Numbered from the stretch's first letter, positions 1 through 63,952 are shown. The stretch: DNA of 64,000 bases from a virus (IMGVR_UViG_3300031992_004563:64001-128000); one strand, 5' to 3'. Numbers and translations: made by a program. The notes: generated from the letters alone by a model not told the origin.

Positions 1-114
1 AGTAAGAAGATGCAAATTCCGAACAGTGGCTTGGGGAAATATAATTGCATGTTTATTTCCCTATAATCCAATAGTTGAGAAAACAACTTAAATAAATCAA
101 AGTAAATTTACTTC

Positions 115-196
115 AGCGAGATAGTTTAATATTTGCTACCAGAATACTGTGCACATGACACAGTGGATGTCAGTTGAAGTCTGGCTCTCGCAACCA
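115..196 (+). tRNA. Atypical tRNA-Met(CAT)-like RNA with encoded CCA
   Basis: GCGAGA/TCTCGC acceptor with 1:72 mismatch and ACCA end; CTGTG-CACATGA-CACAG anticodon arm with A33 instead of U33; T-arm GTCAG-TTGAAGT-CTGGC. Confidence 0.6.
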
Positions 197-584
197 ATAG
201 TTGATGTAAACAACTTTAAAAACCAATATTAAACCACGAAAAAGACTAGAGTTACAGCGATTTCCAGTAGCCGAGGACGAAGCCGTGTGGGTCACCATTG
301 AAATCAAGACCTCTTCTAGTGAGAAGGGTGACATTACTCTCTGGAATTTACGAGTAATGGGATGGGCCAAAAACAACACTATGTGGTTTATACTTATAGT
401 TGAAGGAAAACAACTTTAAAAAAGACAATAACCTATGAATAATTAGGTGCGTTAAACCAGCTACACAAATGCTGTATGTGATAGTGATAAAATGCAGCCA
501 TGGAGGCTAACAAAAAGATTGCAAGCTTTTTGAATGCATTAATAACTTCCATGATTAAATAGTTGAAGGACATACAACTTTAAA

Positions 585-671
585 AACCCGTTGGTGTTTC
601 AGCGGATACAAACACACAAAGGGAGCGTCGGCCGAGTCCACAGAGGGTTGAACCCGTAGACCCTCAAACTT
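585..671 (+). ncRNA. Structured RNA, paralog 1
   Basis: Shares AACCCGTTG..ACAAAG..GAGRGTTGA..TAGACYCTCAAACTT layout with 882-1007. Confidence 0.55.
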
Positions 672-881
672 ATAGTTGAGGTACAACAACTGAAAAAACC
701 AATAAAAGTATTATAACTGAAGTTATTTTACTACGTTAACATATCCACAACCGTATATCTTGAAAAATAGTGGTGGTTCACAAAACAAATGTTTATCATT
801 CGAATAATTCATAAGTATCCATGGAAGGCTTATGATGCGGATACTGTTAATATTTTATAGTTGAGGGACAACAACTTACCA

Positions 882-1007
882 AACCCGTTGATGGCTCAGT
901 GCTGGAATATGCGAGTTGGAACCATACAAAGTGCGGTTACGTTACGAGGCACCACGAGAGTTGATTGGGTATCAGGTATTTAACCGTCGGACTAGACTCT
1001 CAAACTT
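882..1007 (+). ncRNA. Structured RNA, paralog 2
   Basis: Same layout as 585-671, with a compensatory stem change GAGGGT/ACCCTC to GAGAGT/ACTCTC. Confidence 0.55.
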
Positions 1008-1103
1008 ATAAAATATCTTATTTAAGGGCTGTCTTAAGGACACTTTGGATAGGGTGGAGAATACATAAAAAGAGTATTCGTATAAAATAAGATATTTTAA
1101 TAT

Positions 1104-1177
1104 TGCCCTGTAGCTCAATTGGCTAGAGCGTCTGATTTTGGTTCAGAAGGTTGGGGATTCGAACTCCTCCAGGGCAA
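1104..1177 (+). tRNA. tRNA-Gln(TTG)
   Basis: Cloverleaf; TCTGA-TTTTGGT-TCAGA anticodon arm. Confidence 0.85.
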
Positions 1178-1184
1178 CATAGTG

Positions 1185-1273
1185 AAATATATAGCTCAAT
1201 GATGGCGCACTAAAACATGTAGAGCACCGGCCAGTTAAGTCGGCGATATGAGGTTTGATTCCCATTATATTTT
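1185..1273 (+). tRNA. Atypical tRNA-Asn(GTT)-like RNA
   Basis: AAATATA/TATATTT acceptor, enlarged D-loop, CCGGC-CAGTTAA-GTCGG arm with A33, weak T-arm. Confidence 0.5.
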
Positions 1274-1344
1274 GAATCGGTCACTGATATTGTCAGGAAG
1301 CAATTTCTGGCTGGGATATAAAAGTATCACACTGATAAACTATT

Positions 1345-1650
1345 TTGAAACTTATATATAAATTATATTATATTAGTAAAACTAAAGAGATAAAGAAAAA
1401 TATAGTTAGACCAAATCTGACTGAATTTAGAGAGTTATATCTTAAGTCATTGGAAGAATTTGAGTTATAGCCAATTTATAAAGATTTGATTGAACTATAT
1501 TATGAATTCAAAAAGTCTAAACTTAAGTATAGACTTTCTATAGACTAGTTTGATCTATAGTTTTCTAGTTTAAACTCATCTAAATCTAATAAGTGCATTT
1601 ATATTTTGATTCTTTTGAATTTTTGTTCTAAAAGTTATAAAATTGTATAA
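1345..1650 (+). CDS. Possible hypothetical protein (TTG start, 3 in-frame TAG)
   Basis: Open for 101 codons only under code 15; no homology recognised. Confidence 0.3.
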
Positions 1651-1753
1651 ATGTTAATAGTTTAAATACCTAATAAACAATATTGCATAAGGATGTTCCT
1701 ATTTTATAATCACAAAGTTTGATTGCAGTTCATACTCCTCGCAATATTTAAAT

Positions 1754-1826
1754 TGGGAGATCAGCTAATCGGTTAGGCTTCATCTCTGATAAGGATGCCA
1801 TCCGGGTTCAAGTCCCGGTCTCCCAA
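1754..1826 (+). tRNA. tRNA-Ile(GAT)
   Basis: TGGGAGA/TCTCCCA acceptor; CATCT-CTGATAA-GGATG; GGTTCAAGTCC T-arm. Confidence 0.85.
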
Positions 1827-1870
1827 CAAATGAAACAATTTAATATATTTGTAATATAATATATAAATAA

Positions 1871-1945
1871 CGGGTAGTAGTTCAGTCCGGTTAGAATGCT
1901 GCATTTGGGATGCAGAGGTCGTGAGTTCGAATCTCGCCTACCCGA
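1871..1945 (+). tRNA. tRNA-Pro(TGG)
   Basis: Cloverleaf; CTGCA-TTTGGGA-TGCAG. Confidence 0.93.
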
Positions 1946-2532
1946 CAAAATAATAATTAAAAATATTGTTTAATGCATTTGGGCGAGAAGCATTGAACGA
2001 TTGATGCTCATCCTGAACAATGGTTTGACTCCAATACGTCCATGCTAAACGGCAATATAAAATAAGGATTTATTATTAAATAATAGAAAATAATAATTCA
2101 ATGTCTCTCATGTTAGGCGATCAGGTACAGAGACGGATGATTATAGATAGTATAATTTGTTAATTAAAAAGTCGGTGCAAATCCGGCGTAAAATTTAAAA
2201 AATAATTTAATTTTTGCACATAGTATTAAATTATAATTTGTTGTTAAATAAAAGTGCAATATAAAAATTAAATTATAATACATAAATTTTAAATAGATTT
2301 AAATGAAATTGAATTATTATTTAAATTTCCAAGTAAATTTAAAAATCGCTAATATGCTCGGATAGGTATAAGCATACATTAATTCGATGGCCAAATGATT
2401 AATTATGAGTTGGTGGGTGATTATATTGAAAATTGCATATTGAAAAGGAGCAAATTTAATAGAGAAATATTATAATTATTTGTTTAATTATAATAGAGTA
2501 GCTCGCAACAATTATTTTCCGAATTTTTAAAT

Positions 2533-2675
2533 GGCCCATTCGTCTATCGGCTAGGACGCCAGATTTACGTTGGAAAGAAAACCATACTATTAAAAACTCC
2601 AGTTTGGAATATAATATTTGATTATATTATATTTCACTCATTCTGGAAAGAGCAGTTCGATTCTGCTATGGGCTA
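2533..2675 (+). tRNA. tRNA-Glu with 71-nt insertion in the anticodon loop (CTC or TTC)
   Basis: 5' half GGCCCAT..CCAGATT and 3' half (C)TCATTCTGG..ATGGGCTA flank an insert at about 2566-2637; the anticodon arm matches the neighbouring intact tRNA-Glu. Confidence 0.85.
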
Positions 2676-2699
2676 CTTTACAATTAAAATTAAAAATAT

Positions 2700-2778
2700 G
2701 GATCATTCGAATATCGGTTAGTTCGCCAGATTTTCATTCTGGAAAGGTTTTAGGGTTCGACTCCCACATGATCTACCA
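2700..2778 (+). tRNA. tRNA-Glu(TTC)
   Basis: CCAGA-TTTTCAT-TCTGG; encoded CCA; imperfect T-stem. Confidence 0.8.
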
Positions 2779-2897
2779 AATTAAACTTGCAATCCAACGA
2801 TTACTATATGTAAGTTCGGGATTTGGATGGGCACTACCAAACGGACCGAGAACCGCGTGCATTCGAGATTGGTGACGGTGTGGAGAGACACACTCTT

Positions 2898-2972
2898 GGT
2901 CCGGTAGCTCAGTGGTGTAGTAGCAGGACACTCATAATGTCAAGGTCGGGGGTTCAAATCCCTCTCGGACCA
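2898..2972 (+). tRNA. tRNA-Met/Ile2(CAT)
   Basis: Cloverleaf; GACA-CTCATAA-TGTC. Confidence 0.85.
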
Positions 2973-3309
2973 CGTGAAAAACCGTAGTGTATACTTTATA
3001 TGTTTCACCAAAATGCGGTAACCTCCATATGCCGGCAAACATAAAATATGGCAAGGACAAAGTGAAAACGTATTTTCAGAAAAAAGTTGAAATTATATAC
3101 TGAATGTAATAGAGTCTGGTCATGGCCTGACATTTTGTAGGAGAGTTAACTATTCTGCAAGGTCATATGGAATCAACCCAGTGAAAGACTACGTATATAT
3201 CTCATGAGATTTCAACTTCATTATGGTGCTCTTCTAGAGAGCATGCGGGACAGCGACGTGGCAACCGCAGTGGAAGATTCTCTTCTCCAATAAATACTAG
3301 GCGTCTCCA

Positions 3310-3341
3310 ATAGTTGAAATATGGATAACAACTATAAAACC
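3310..3341 (+). repeat. Seventh copy of the ATAGTTGA..CAACT hairpin motif
   Basis: ATAGTTGAAATATGGATAACAACTATAAAACC, directly after TCTCCA and just before a tRNA-Met. Confidence 0.75.
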
Positions 3342-3350
3342 ATATAATAT

Positions 3351-3422
3351 AGCGGGGTAGAGCAGTGGTAGCTCGTCAGGCTCATAACCTGAAGGCCGGG
3401 GGTTCGAATCCCTCCCCCGCAA
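3351..3422 (+). tRNA. tRNA-Met(CAT), initiator-like
   Basis: 1:72 mismatch, GCGGGG/CCCCGC acceptor, TCAGG-CTCATAA-CCTGA. Confidence 0.9.
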
Positions 3423-3529
3423 CAGAGGCCCATGTCTGAAATGGCTTGCAGGTTCGAGTCCTGTCTTTGGTGTTTCATCATTTTATGGTGTTCCTACCGA
3501 GGTGGCGAAAGTGGTAAACGCGTGGGTAA
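3423..3529 (+). tRNA. Circularly permuted tRNA-Leu-type gene (3' half 3423-3472, 5' half 3496-3529)
   Basis: Long variable arm, GGTTCGAGTCC T-arm and CTTTGGT come before ACCGAGG-TGGCGAAAGTGGTAAACGCG; acceptor strands and TGGGT/GCCCA anticodon stem pair across the halves. Confidence 0.75.
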
Positions 3530-4629: not shown

Positions 4630-5376
4630 CTGATTTTCAATAAGTAACAGAAACGAGGTTGAGGTATAGATGATGGGAAAATATGACAGAGACTAAACAG
4701 AGACGACTTATTGAAACAACACTATAATATCTAATATTCAGTGGGGAGTAGGCTTGACCGAAATTAAAACATCTGACCCATGTTGGTAGTTAGATATTTG
4801 AAATAACGTACGAAAAAGATGAAACAAACTCCACCGTTTCATACATTGGGAGATGATCTTTTGGTGTTGTGGAAGCCTGCAATGGTGTAAGAAAATCGCA
4901 ATGGTTTATCCATATTATAACGTGTAATATGGGATTTAAATTCCACCAATTTTTGAATTATAATTAAATGCGTAGAACGATCAATAAAATGCGACATACG
5001 AAAGTCACATGGGATAAATGGAATTTGCTATTATACCGCAATTCATAAGTATGTTCACTGTGGAGAATCGGGAATCAGTGGTTTAATTATTTACACTTGG
5101 AGATTACGTATCAATATAGGTGTGTATATTTTAAAAGTGACGGTCGGGGTGAAAATCCAAGCGAGTTTAAACGGGAAGGAAGAGAGAAAATTTATCAAGT
5201 CATATGCTCCTGATAAATATACGGCTTTTAAAATAAATTATATCCTGTATGGGTTCTATACACCGAGCACTTATAATCCTCGTCATTATATACTGCTCGT
5301 TAAAATTATTTGGTTTATAGCACTAGTCTTGATTTTTCTTAAATAAATATAATATAAAATACATTTATTAGTTAAT

Positions 5377-6093
5377 ATGTTATATTGTAAATATTGTGGC
5401 AAAGAATGTAAAAATTTAAATTCATTAAGACAGCATGAGATTAGGTGTAAACAAAATCCTAATAGAATTAAAATGGATTTATCAAAATGGAAGTGCCCAC
5501 CAGAAAAAAGAAAATTAGGAACAAAAAATAAAGTTGCTTTAACTAATGGAAATAAAAACAAATATCTATTTCCTAATGAAGCAGAAGAATTTTTACAAAA
5601 TAATTTAGATTGGCATAAAGGATTTACAATTATAAATCATGGTCCAAATTTAGGAATTGCATCCACTCCTGAAAAAGAGGCTGAGAGAAAAAGAAAAATT
5701 TCAGAAACAATGAAGAAAAATCCATTAGCTGGTGGTAGAAGAATAGGTAGTGGACGAGGAAAACAAGGATGGTATAAAGGAATTTATTGTGATAGTTCTT
5801 GGGAACTTGCATTTTTGGTATATTATTTAGATCATAATAAAAATATAAAGAGATGTGAAGAACGAAGAGAATATATTTTTAATAATGAAAAACATACTTA
5901 TATTCCTGATTTTATAACAGATGATGGTATTATAGAAATAAAGGGATATAAAACACAACAATGGAAATCCAAATTAGAACAAAATCCTGATATAAAAGTT
6001 TTATATGAAGATGATATTAAACCATATTTAGATTATGCAACATCATTATATGGCCAGTATTATTGGGAAGTTCTATATGAAAATAAAAAATAA
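5377..6093 (+). CDS. Free-standing homing-endonuclease-like protein (Zn finger, NUMOD3-like, PD-(D/E)XK)
   Basis: CKYC..HEIRC, KRKISETMK, DSSWE, YIPDF..IEIKG motifs; located inside the tRNA array. Confidence 0.75.
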   Translation: MLYCKYCGKECKNLNSLRQHEIRCKQNPNRIKMDLSKWKCPPEKRKLGTKNKVALTNGNKNKYLFPNEAEEFLQNNLDWHKGFTIINHGPNLGIASTPEKEAERKRKISETMKKNPLAGGRRIGSGRGKQGWYKGIYCDSSWELAFLVYYLDHNKNIKRCEERREYIFNNEKHTYIPDFITDDGIIEIKGYKTQQWKSKLEQNPDIKVLYEDDIKPYLDYATSLYGQYYWEVLYENKK

Positions 6094-6182: not shown

Positions 6183-6311
6183 CCGTTAAATATAAACCTG
6201 CATAGTAAAGTTCCTATTATAGGTTCGATTCCTAAAATTACTGGATGGTTATTACTTTCCGCGGGTTTAACTTATAATAAAATGCATAAAGTTGTTCCTA
6301 TTTAGTTTATT

Positions 6312-6399
6312 GAAAAGCAGGAAGTCGGGGGTTCGAGTCCCTCTCTCCACACAAATAATATAAAATGTGGAGATAACTCAGATGGTAGAGTGCCCGCCT
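6312..6399 (+). tRNA. Circularly permuted tRNA-Phe(GAA) (3' half 6312-6351, 5' half 6367-6399)
   Basis: GAAAAGCAGG..GGTTCGAGTCC..TCTCCACA precedes GTGGAGATAACTCAGATGGTAGAGTGCCCGCCT; joining gives a perfect GTGGAGA/TCTCCAC acceptor and loop CT-GAA-AA. Confidence 0.85.
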
Positions 6400-6459
6400 A
6401 AACATACACTTCGCGTTTTATCCCCCTTATAATAGTTTGAACATTGCTATTTAAATAAT

Positions 6460-8319: not shown

Positions 8320-8793
8320 ATAAATTAATATTCGAGGGTCTACGAGTGAATTAACACGGAGAGCCAAACCAAAAACAACCGAGTAGGTTTGGAGAGAGTA
8401 GAGATGGTGTGGCGTAAGTGGACAGGTTGTAGTTTGTGATATGCCTAGAAGTGGTGGCCTGCTGGAAAATGGTGGCATGTAGAATATTGATTTTTAATTT
8501 TTTAATGTGAAGGATAACACAATAAAACCCTTGTTGCTAACATTCTTGGGCAGGTAATGAAAATGGCTAGGTGTATGACCGGTGACTTGGTGAAATTCCA
8601 ACATTCCTAGTGAAGAAAAATGATTCGCGGTTAATTTTTCTTAAAGGTCATTTTTAAATATAATCACGATACTAAGACGCGTACCGACGGGTCAGTTCCA
8701 GTATTCTGGTATAAAACTCTCATATATGTCCAAATATATTTTGGTGCACCTGAAGTTGGATGAAGAGAGGAACATTAGTATGTGTGGTTTTTT

Positions 8794-61600: not shown

Positions 61601-63952
61601 ATGGCAACAAATGGTGGAAATCTACCAGCTTTAATTAAGTATAATAAAATTAAGGATGTGACTATTTATAAACTTCCAGGTTCTATGAAATCCGGAAGTT
61701 TTAATAGTGCGTATGGAATTAAGTTTACTGAAATTATTGAGGAAAAGGTTGTAAAACGTGGTATTTTCCGTAATAAAACTGAAATAAAAACAAATGAAAT
61801 TGCACGAATTGTTCCATTTTCATTTAAGACTCTTGAAATTGCTAAAGATTTTGCTCAATATCTTCCAGAAATGTCAATATGGGGTGATCGTTTATATGAA
61901 AATTCAGGAGATACAGTAAATGTTAAAAGCCAGGTATTGTATGAGACATATATAATTAAAGCTAAAGATATAAATGCCAATATTGGTGTTAAATTTTTAG
62001 ATGAATGTCTTCATCCAACTCAACAAACCATTAAGAAAAAAGAAACAAGTGATGGCAGTTCATGGCGTGAATACTATATTAATGACTTGGACAAAAAGAA
62101 TTTTGATGGCTCACAAGGCCATTGGTATGATCATACAGAATTGGTTGTTGATTATTTCTTTACGACTTATGAATTTAATTTCAATTTAAAACAATTTATA
62201 CCACGTGATAAATTTGAAACATTAGGAGAACGCCAAGCATTTGAAAATGAAAATACACATAAATTTATTTTAGTTGAGAATTAATGAATAAGCTTATTAA
62301 AACATATGTAGATATTGAAGAAATTCAGGATAATTATAATACATATTATTCTGCAACTTTTACATATCAATATGATGTGTATTTTTTAGGAATGTATGTT
62401 AAAACAAAAAATGTTGAATATCATGTGCCATTCCTATTTAAATCATTTAATATTGCTAAAAACTTTTGTGAGTTAAAGCCAGAAATTTTAGAATATTATT
62501 TTTCTAATAAAAACTATGATAATAGGGAAGTTGATTATTTTACATATAAAATAATAGTTAATGATAAAATATTTTATATAAAGTGGGAAGAAAATTCAAT
62601 ACGAGTAAGAGATCAACATGATATGGAATTTTATTTTAGAGAAAATCCAGTTGTCGATTCATTTGTAACAAATATTATTTTAAAAGATTGGATGCACACA
62701 CATAGATTAAGTGATGTTGAATTTTTAATGAAACTCCTGATTTATTAAATCTTGTTGAACACGTTAACTTAAAAACAAATAAAAAATGGCATTTTGAATT
62801 AGTTGAAAACAATTAAATTATGAAACATACACATACATATGTAGATATTAATGGCATTATTTTAGATAAAGTTACTTATTATGTAGTAACATTTACTAAA
62901 GTATATGAGATGTCTTTATTTGGAAAAGTAATAAAAGAAACTAAGAAAATTCAAGAAGTGCCATTTGTTTTTAAAAGCTATGAAATTGCAAAAGAATTTT
63001 GTGAATTAAATCCTGTATATAAACAAATTACTTTTTCACAATCTTCAAAATATGATGTTTACAATACAACATATGACACATATCGATTAATATTAAATAA
63101 TAAAGTTAATGCATATATTGTTTGGGAACATTTAACAGGAACATATAATTTTGCGCATGCAGAGTTTCATACAGATAAATCATATCCAATTGTTAAAGGA
63201 TTTATTAAAGATGAACTAAATAATATTAAATTACCAACAACATATTCAACTATTAGTACCGGGCCGCAAACACCAAATATGGTTGAAAAACTTTCTGATA
63301 TTTTTGCAATATCTAAAGATAAACATCACTTTGAATTAATTGAGCAATGATAGTAAAGTATAAAGAAAATATTTATGCAAATATACAGGAGCAGAATATT
63401 ACAAAATATATTCCTGCTGCTGGTATATCTAAATGTTATGCTGTAACATTTACAAGAGAAAAAGTATATACACTTTTTGGAAAAGTTATTAAGACACAAT
63501 CAAAAAGTGAAACAATGCCATTTGTATTCAAGTCATTGGATATTGCTAAAGATTTTTGTAAAATTTGTCCTACCGTAATATCTGATGTGTTTATTAATTC
63601 ACATAATTATTATAAAGTAAAATATGAAACATATAGATTGGTAAAAAATGAAAAAATACTTGGCTATATTAAATGGAATACATTTTATGCATATGATGCA
63701 AATTTGGATTATGCCGGTCAAGATACTCATAAACGATATACACGAAGTCTATCTGATCCAATTGTTGATAAGTTTGTTGAAGATATAGTAGTAAAAGATT
63801 GGATTCATACAAATAGTATAAAAGATATAAAATTTTTAAATGAAAGCGATAGTTTAAGTGAATTAATTAATAAAGTTGAAAATAAAAATAATTTAAAAAA
63901 GAAAAGCAAAGAAGTATATAAAGAGTGGAATTTTAAATTAGTTGAATCATAA
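61601..63952 (+). CDS. Four tandem paralogs (61601-62284, 62284-62748, 62820-63350, 63347-63952)
   Basis: Shared PFxFKS/TxxIAKxF and C-terminal FxLV/IE motifs; a probable fifth copy starts at 63954. Confidence 0.85.

Follow-up and report, generated by a model that had tools for sequence, protein, structure and literature searches.

What separates a run of unlike structured RNAs in a phage genome, and how might each be released from its neighbors? This question is raised by the start of the 64,000-nt stretch of DNA analyzed here (the window), which corresponds to G000:64001-128000 of a 380,519-nt virus contig with a G+C content of 28% and an estimated completeness of 76%. A preliminary description had proposed that six copies of an ATAGTTG..CAACT hairpin punctuate an array of different self-folding segments, forming a polycistronic small-RNA cassette in which the hairpin is a processing or protein-binding signal.

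The phage and its RNA-gene region

The coding density of the contig rises from 0.62 to 0.86 once TAG is read through, and profile scans of the ORFs identified genes of T4-like type for portal, terminase, and capsid. The capsid protein shares 63% identity with that of the Prevotella Lak phages. By its capsid identity, its T4-like genes, and its TAG recoding, the phage is a Lak-related, TAG-recoded jumbo phage, and its host would be a member of the Bacteroidota. A suppressor tRNA with a CUA anticodon was not found in the contig (~76% complete) despite the recoded TAG; a tmRNA and SmpB are both encoded by the phage. The repeat lies in an RNA region of ~19 kb (genome ~59,900-78,300) that holds 23 plus-strand tRNAs called by ARAGORN and few ORFs.

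A hairpin repeat confined to one strand

Six copies of the repeat start at 71, 197, 396, 559, 672, and 857, and a seventh at 3310, all as first described, and CCA does stand immediately 5' of three of them (71, 197, and 3310). The copies in the window, with one variant, are as follows.

71-88, plus strand: boundary hairpin 1; AT and AGTTG, loop AGAAAA, CAACT, then an A-run
197-215, plus strand: boundary hairpin 2; pattern match
396-415, plus strand: boundary hairpin 3; pattern match with the consensus loop AAGGAAAA
559-579, plus strand: boundary hairpin 4; pattern match
672-691, plus strand: boundary hairpin 5; pattern match
857-876, plus strand: boundary hairpin 6; pattern match
3310-3333, plus strand: boundary hairpin 7; after CCA (3307-3309) and before tRNA-Met(CAU) at 3351-3423
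8506-8521, plus strand: variant boundary hairpin; TGTG, AAGGATAA, CACA, and an A-run, heading a further candidate cargo

The pattern ATAGTTGA-N6..13-CAACT, which the copy at 71 escapes because its loop is shorter, matched six times in the window against 0.01 expected, and none of 100 shuffled sequences reached six. When the motif was scanned across the whole 380.5-kb contig, nine canonical sites were found, all on the plus strand and all within the RNA region, and none stands ahead of a protein gene. Five looser AGTTG..CAACT palindromes occur elsewhere in the contig, without the loop and the A-run. Three variant-stem copies (genome ~60166, genome ~62080, and window 8506) bring the total to ~12. 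The array had been expected to continue upstream of the window, and this was true in part: two canonical copies (genome 60292 and 60431) and two of the variant-stem copies lie there, but the run is broken and the canonical ones are 3.6-3.7 kb away. Likewise, the segments between hairpins, put at 85-170 nt, measure 92-180 nt (108, 180, 143, 92, and 165 nt, with ~131 nt after the sixth hairpin).

The repeat in related phages

When IMG/VR was scanned with the pattern, 37 loci matched. Of these, 12, from seven contigs, hold four to eight copies beside tRNAs; the other 25 consisted of a single match with no tRNA and were discarded as probable chance matches. A metagenome scan added 32 further loci with the motif, and 41 loci were taken into further analysis. 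Since some of these are overlapping or near-identical contigs, they represent fewer than 41 independent phages. Six to eight copies on a single strand were found in five of five whole related records, with 32 of the 34 copies in one cluster, while the reversed control gave one match. No capsid gene was found in a search of five related fragments. Two of the five carry the Lak-type paralog family, the shared RNA cassettes being the one sign of kinship in the other three. Blastn of window positions 1-1100 against 50,697 annotated phage records yielded one match, a 33-nt tRNA, and a search for related loci by way of a neighboring protein yielded none.

The 129 distinct canonical copies mostly have a loop of 8 nt (74 copies), followed by 7 nt (28) and 9 nt (21), within an overall range of 6-12 nt, and the commonest loop sequence is AAGGAAAA (58 of 129). 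The stem is flanked by AT on the 5' side and by a T-A-run and CC on the 3' side. For an unbiased view of the stem, every AAGGA[AC]AA word in the 41 oriented loci was collected with no pairing rule imposed. There were 114 such words in the sense orientation versus 3 in the antisense. A stem of at least three pairs surrounds 23 of the 53 sense words that lack the canonical arms, and one of at least four pairs surrounds 18; shuffled partners gave a mean of 5.3 and a maximum of 12 in 2000 trials, and outside the RNA region of this genome, as a control, 2 of 53 words sit in such a stem. The variant stems include TAAG/CTTA, CAAG/CTTG, CGAG/CTCG, AGTG/CACT, AGTTA/TAACT, and AGTAC/GTACT, and forms with G-U pairs, such as AGTTG/CAGCT, were also seen. 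With an A-rich loop that is kept and a stem that covaries and accepts G-U variants, the repeat is, on this comparative evidence, an RNA hairpin.

Structured cargo between the hairpins

The hairpins of the array delimit the following RNAs.

1-70, plus strand: 3' part of an upstream RNA; long hairpin at 31-61 and a CCA end (68-70) that abuts hairpin 1
115-196, plus strand: cargo 1, tRNA-like, with CAU at the place of the anticodon; the ACCA end is encoded
230-390, plus strand: cargo 2, multi-helix RNA closed by TAAACCAC/GTGGTTTA
424-558, plus strand: cargo 3, three-hairpin RNA (predicted fold)
587-671, plus strand: cargo 4, member of family X; helix 1 with a bulged A, AG, helix 2, CAN, and helix 3 (GARAG/CUYUC)
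700-856, plus strand: cargo 5, long A+T-rich branched hairpin (folding z -2.1)
884-1007, plus strand: cargo 6, second member of family X; extended helix 3, no hairpin downstream

One segment had been called tRNA-like, and cargo 1 indeed folds as a cloverleaf ending in ACCA, with a non-standard D-arm and base 33; neither ARAGORN nor Rfam called it. Hairpins flank it at three of three homologous loci, each with CCA in the same register, and 5 of its 22 pairs are changed on both sides among three sequences. For cargo 2, whose homologs in five other loci are 78-99% identical, 7 of 42 pairs are changed on both sides among four sequences. Cargo 3 recurs at 98% identity in four loci with other neighbors, and L019 carries cargo 2 and 3 in the reversed order relative to the window. 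Cargo 5 has a 97% identical copy in L023, followed by a different neighbor. No homolog of the upstream RNA was found in the other loci. The hairpin is not obligatory: in addition to the open end of cargo 6, cargo 2 has no hairpin at all in L023 and lacks the downstream one in L019.

The claim that each segment folds on itself is borne out by covariation for segments 1, 2, 4, and 6, whereas folding energies are no better than those of shuffled sequences (z of -1.7, -0.6, -1.8, -1.2, -1.7, and +1.4 for segments 1 to 6); segments 3 and 5 are uninformative on covariation because their homologs are 97-98% identical. The pairing CATGGAGG/CTTCCATG, thought to close a whole segment, closes merely the 3' hairpin of segment 3, and the segments are not all different, as 4 and 6 are paralogs. 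Searching each segment against Rfam 15 identified no family for any of the six, the best hit (E 0.13, minus strand) being at chance level.

The two paralogs belong to what we call family X. The search for it yielded 35 distinct members, and a third member in this genome lies at 62,098, behind a variant hairpin. The three-helix structure of the family was set by eye, and helix 3, which carries a conserved internal loop, formed part of the search pattern, unlike helices 1 and 2. On 24 members, 92% of the cells are paired, compared with 33-49% in slid controls, 10 of the 16 pairs change on both sides, and none of 500 shuffles reached the covariation score. Family X, which has strong covariation behind it and no entry in Rfam, makes at least one RNA family that is new. 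A family X model run against 40 kb of phage Lak-A1 identified no member (best E 0.63).

Over all loci, 201 hairpin-headed units (150 distinct) fell into 89 blastn clusters, a rough figure, because a single family is spread across many of them and certain units contain two RNAs. Closed units have a median length of 130 nt (10th-90th percentile 85-281) and the cassettes hold no ORFs. Downstream neighbors differ in 19 of the 34 clusters that were seen at least twice with a defined neighbor; recombination between repeats, acting on the DNA, is the probable cause of this reshuffling. Cargo in the relatives also includes ordinary tRNAs and tRNA-like RNAs without an anticodon arm, as well as copies of part of bacterial 23S rRNA with compensated stems (model positions 2127-2214; 54-60 bits), a part that we take to be the L1 stalk.

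L080 3202-3289; L106 3034-3119 (minus strand); L098: 23S-like cargo, hairpin-headed, in two sequence clusters

A DNA search found no such L1-stalk cargo in the present contig, and the window cargo showed no likeness to a proteobacterial rRNA operon in a comparison for which the L1-stalk cargo of the relatives served as the positive control. A 23-nt match to 23S rRNA in another cargo cluster was rejected, since shuffled sequences gave matches as good. The tRNA-like cargo with D- and T-arms and no proper anticodon arm, a candidate decoy, was observed in L015 (near 4915-4990), L098 (1480-1547), and L019. As a set, the cargo RNAs likely act on host translation and defence, as decoys or as helpers; this is the weakest step of our interpretation.

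One register at CCA ends and tRNA introns

Among 97 non-homologous upstream contexts, a CCA end lies exactly 2 nt before the stem in 13, compared with at most 5 at any other offset (Poisson ~1e-10); the remaining 84 have no CCA at this register. A comparable arrangement was found inside tRNA genes of this phage, of its relatives, and of published Lak genomes, exemplified in the window by the following.

2533-2676, plus strand: tRNA-Glu(UUC) with a 71-nt intron at 2567-2637; junction unique by alignment to intronless tRNAs

This intron consists of 2 nt, a hairpin with the loop AAAGAAAA, an A-run, a long helix, and a C (z -2.7). Junctions were placed by the best global alignment to 162 intronless tRNAs, with the hairpin ignored. 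They fell in the anticodon loop for 10 of 13 intron candidates (6 unique and 4 with two to three tied shifts), and three candidates failed. The predicted stem begins 1-2 nt past the junction in five of the six unique cases; in the sixth, a mismatched stem is visible at the same place and is not the minimum-energy fold. All 10 introns, which are 70-119 nt long, share the hairpin, the A-run, the long helix, and a final C that comes one (seven introns) or two (three introns) bases after the helix, and five of the 10 helices bear a T-loop arm. Insertion points range from 34/35 to 37/38, that is, over four anticodon-loop positions, which disfavors a ruler on the tRNA body.

It should be noted that the array consensus sequence is not shared by the intron hairpins. 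A generic scan of the genome for a hairpin followed by an A-run gave 140 plus-strand versus 82 minus-strand matches, 19 of them in 22 kb of RNA regions; because such a scan is unspecific in an A+T-rich genome, the link between hairpin and intron rests on position and not on the rarity of the motif. In 40 kb of Lak-A1, three of the six sense matches of the same scan are its three introns. By eye, the Lak Tyr, Phe, Thr, and Gly introns as given in Table S6 of PMC6784885 likewise begin with a small A-loop hairpin and an A-run, with a tRNA-like helix at the end.

RNA libraries

The window (positions 1-3500) shares words with 24 RNA runs, one of which shares 82%. Four runs were compared as contigs, which carry no information on ends, strand, or level and may hold DNA. 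The region is covered by contigs of two runs from one sheep-gut sample (X1 and X2). Near the first hairpins upstream, the depth in X1 rises from 0.6 to ~400, and a 1404-nt contig of this run that is 100% identical to this genome spans hairpins 4-6. Run X2 contains a variant strain with other cargo following cargo 2; one of its contigs skips exactly the predicted tRNA-Glu intron and could derive from the intronless tRNA of another organism. Runs X4 and X6 were rejected as evidence for the strain on account of patchy cover at 88-99% identity, and joints between distant places in RNA contigs were taken as relatives with other cassette orders. The region is likely transcribed.

Proposed processing and candidate enzymes

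The notion of a small-RNA cassette with a processing or protein-binding hairpin agrees with the single strand, the confinement to the RNA region, the covarying stem, the register, and the RNA contig that spans several hairpins; the cut itself is what we infer. CCA ends and 5' splice junctions show one and the same register, which would be accounted for most simply by a cut made two bases ahead of the stem. We therefore favor, with moderate confidence, a reading drawn from sequence in which the hairpin fixes the upstream cut, frees the RNAs, and starts tRNA splicing, which RNase Z and a phage RNA ligase would finish. A short hairpin with an A-rich loop, followed by an A-run, would head each unit of an operon of small structured phage RNAs, and an endonuclease would cut ~2 bases upstream of the stem, freeing the 3' end of the preceding RNA. 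The same cut would serve as the 5' cut of the tRNA introns. RNase P would strip the leader from tRNA-like cargo, and the hairpin left at the 5' end may shield the downstream RNA. RNase Z cuts after the discriminator base, and the host enzyme would make the 3' cut of the intron just past the discriminator-like base of its helix. Both cuts would yield a 3'-OH and a 5'-phosphate, ends that Rnl2-type ligases join; one such ligase, encoded by the phage, would seal the exons. Several findings weigh against this reading: the 84 contexts that lack CCA at the register, the cargo that does without a hairpin, the divergent sequence of the intron hairpins, and the lack of an array in the 40 kb of Lak-A1 examined. 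No terminator-like site was found on the sense strand inside the array.

Protein scans covered 351 of the 450 called ORFs, leaving out those under 95 aa and most members of one paralog family. Enzymes identified in the phage include three RNA ligases, Pnkp, a cyclic phosphodiesterase, a CCA-adding enzyme, and Thg1. The candidate splicing ligase is a PF09414 protein (genome 316,367-317,044, minus strand) that matches 19 of 50,697 phage records, 15 of the 19 being Lak, at ~60% identity; in Lak-A1, this near-Lak-restricted ligase sits ~9 kb from the intron tRNAs. Possible RNA-binding partners are an S1-domain protein (L069:2932-4191, minus strand), common to 15 of 15 Lak records, and an Sm-like WYL_2 protein (L064:18361-18774). 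No candidate nuclease or hairpin reader was found among the 351 ORFs (contig ~76% complete), nor was any match to Ro60/TROVE, RtcB, RNase III, or reverse transcriptase. CsrA was considered as a reader of the AGGA loop and rejected, as the contig has no PF02599 match. Likewise, RegB, EndA (PF01974, E up to 1), integrase (PF00589), RNase Z, and RNase Y are not in the contig; RNase Z and RNase Y both match in a Bacteroides control genome. The nuclease could be host RNase Y, an enzyme of the RNase E/G type, or an unannotated phage protein.

Several other roles for the repeat have to be weighed. The hairpin might be a protein-binding 5' leader or stabilizer, with host nucleases cutting the A+U-rich linkers and the hairpin blocking decay or recruiting a chaperone or packaging protein, for instance the S1-domain protein. 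A fixed loop on a stem of free sequence suits recognition by a protein, the phage encodes both RNA-binding candidates named above, and hairpins downstream of B. subtilis RNase Y sites have been described as stabilizing the processed product from its 5' end more than specifying the cut (10.1101/2023.03.12.532304). Splice junctions, however, need base exactness, the register of the hairpin is constant at four anticodon-loop positions, and a barrier to 5' decay would not define the 3' end of the upstream exon; we consider this explanation unlikely.

We hold it to be quite improbable that the repeat is a boxB-like antitermination signal reloading an elongation factor before each structured RNA. 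The short stem, the purine-rich loop, and the confinement to one strand of a long RNA-gene region resemble such a signal, as does a conserved leader at genome ~59,930 with what we take to be a boxA-like word, 80% identical in two related contigs; yet there is no sense-strand terminator-like site in the array, nut-type systems are far less densely spaced than the ~130 nt seen here, and antitermination gives no reason for a register to CCA or to splice junctions. Still less credence is due to a phage promoter that would make each cargo its own transcript. A fairly constant distance ahead of the RNAs, many of which begin with CC after the A-run, speaks for it, but a promoter would hardly have a loop varying from 6 to 12 nt or stems that covary and tolerate G-U, an element of similar build occurs within tRNA genes, protein genes of this genome are never preceded by a canonical copy, and sigma-70-type matches are not tied to the repeats. 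Least probable of all, in our judgment, is a DNA recombination site of the integron attC kind for moving RNA-gene cassettes. Cassette order is shuffled between phages, as such a site would predict; against it, the (incomplete) contig has no tyrosine recombinase, the stem is free to change in sequence and uses G-U pairs, and the RecA-like protein of the phage, recombining near-identical repeats of 25-30 nt, would explain the shuffling with no dedicated site.

Comparison with known systems

The locus had been likened to CRISPR arrays. What CRISPR and ToxI arrays share with it is only the layout, a constant repeat alternating with cargo, in units predicted to be released by endonucleolytic cuts. 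CRISPR differs in its unique foreign spacers of ~26-50 nt, whereas the units here are 90-280 nt, structured, conserved, and recurrent among phages, the stem is not fixed, and the cut would fall 5' of the hairpin; no Cas6 or other Cas family, beyond TnpB-type proteins, was found among the 351 ORFs. Type III toxin-antitoxin arrays consist of tandem, near-identical pseudoknot repeats, while neighboring units here are mostly unlike, and Pfam scans of the 351 ORFs found no ToxN, CptN, or TenpN toxin family.

The tRNA cluster of phage T4 yields, from a polycistronic precursor, two stable RNAs of unknown function, species 1 and 2 (rnaC and rnaD). Structured non-tRNA RNAs are placed among same-strand tRNA genes in both phages, but the T4 cluster has two fixed species and no repeated signal, compared with ~89 clusters in changing order under one motif. 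In tRNA punctuation and mascRNA-type release, RNase P and RNase Z free tRNA-like elements. A tRNA-like helix that sets a cut after the discriminator base is shared with what we propose for the intron 3' junction; here, however, a separate hairpin would set the second boundary, and the flanking exons would be joined to make a tRNA. Group I tRNA introns exceed ~200 nt and have a conserved core and a terminal G, unlike the short introns of this phage, which end in C and gave no group I match in Rfam. With respect to EndA-type introns, the predicted folds pair within the intron and not across the junctions. Theta (HDV-like) ribozymes of recoded gut phages lie directly 3' of the tRNA end and were proposed to make the 3' end (PMC10879173). 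They are similarly cis elements at a tRNA 3' end, but at 18-24 nt the present hairpin is too small for an HDV-like fold, and a protein nuclease would be needed. No ribozyme family of Rfam 15 matched in the window (E up to 10) or in the related loci.

The closest precedent is the short anticodon-loop tRNA introns of the Lak megaphages, called 'enigmatic' (Devoto et al. 2019, PMC6784885). They are of the same type as the intron of tRNA-Glu 2533-2676, a likeness of intron and not of array: no repeat-punctuated array was found in the 40 kb of Lak-A1 examined. The sections of the Lak paper considered here (PMC6784885) give no hairpin signal, mechanism, or array, and the word 'hairpin' is absent from the main text of the preprint, which does report highly expressed intergenic regions. 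Neither the array, family X, nor the hairpin rule for Lak introns is described in the parts of the literature covered (including PMC6784885, 10.1101/356790, PMC8346664, and PMC10879173), though RNA-motif catalogues outside Rfam and the Lak-paper supplements could hold some of the motifs. The cassette organization is real, conserved, and apparently undescribed.

A broader reading is possible, and we advance it tentatively: Lak-related phages would run a modular cassette system of a new kind, with one hairpin signal that divides a long transcript into dozens of interchangeable structured RNAs. Some of these would mimic host translation RNAs (tRNA-like, anticodon-less tRNA, 23S L1 stalk) and act as decoys. 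Lak introns would then be cassettes nested in anticodon loops, spliced through the hairpin-guided cut, RNase Z, and an Rnl2-type ligase, and neither self-splicing nor dependent on EndA. The processing model offers a base-exact, checkable mechanism for the tRNA introns of Lak phages, which have lacked an explanation since 2019, together with a candidate ligase. It would also provide a possible account of the highly expressed non-coding regions of Lak-type phages as a shuffled library of structured RNAs, and a portable signal of ~30 nt that releases arbitrary structured RNAs would serve as a tool in Bacteroidota.

Other features of the contig

A leader at the start of the RNA region (genome 59,880-60,170; L001 7880-8170) is kept at 80-85% identity in two related contigs and has a weak Rfam match to DUF2693 (E 3). 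One RNA contig starts with an adaptor at L060 1922, a possible transcript start. A tRNA-like gene with a 20-nt D-loop insertion at window 1185-1273 (Rfam tRNA, 41.9 bits) was missed by ARAGORN and is 84-98% identical in five related loci. At window 6310-6400, the 3' half of a tRNA-Phe(GAA)-like sequence (anticodon, T-arm, and acceptor 3' strand) lies directly ahead of the matching 5' half (acceptor 5' strand and D-arm), a layout that resembles a circularly permuted tRNA; ARAGORN called no tRNA-Phe(GAA) in the contig, and the relatives give only weak partial matches to this candidate. At genome 61,586-61,705 and 46,548-46,961 there are more tRNA-like genes, whose long insertions begin without the hairpin. 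Three zinc-finger/endonuclease-like ORFs amid the tRNA genes (window 5377-6093; genome 62,678-63,709 and 47,234-48,247), one of them with a DUF559 domain, are probably mobile homing-type nucleases, and the contig also carries several IS605 TnpB-type genes and an intein-bearing DNA polymerase. Finally, the phage encodes the anti-defence proteins Acb3, a CBASS inhibitor, and Tad6, a Thoeris inhibitor (L065:2561-3382 and L074:8773-9690, minus strand).
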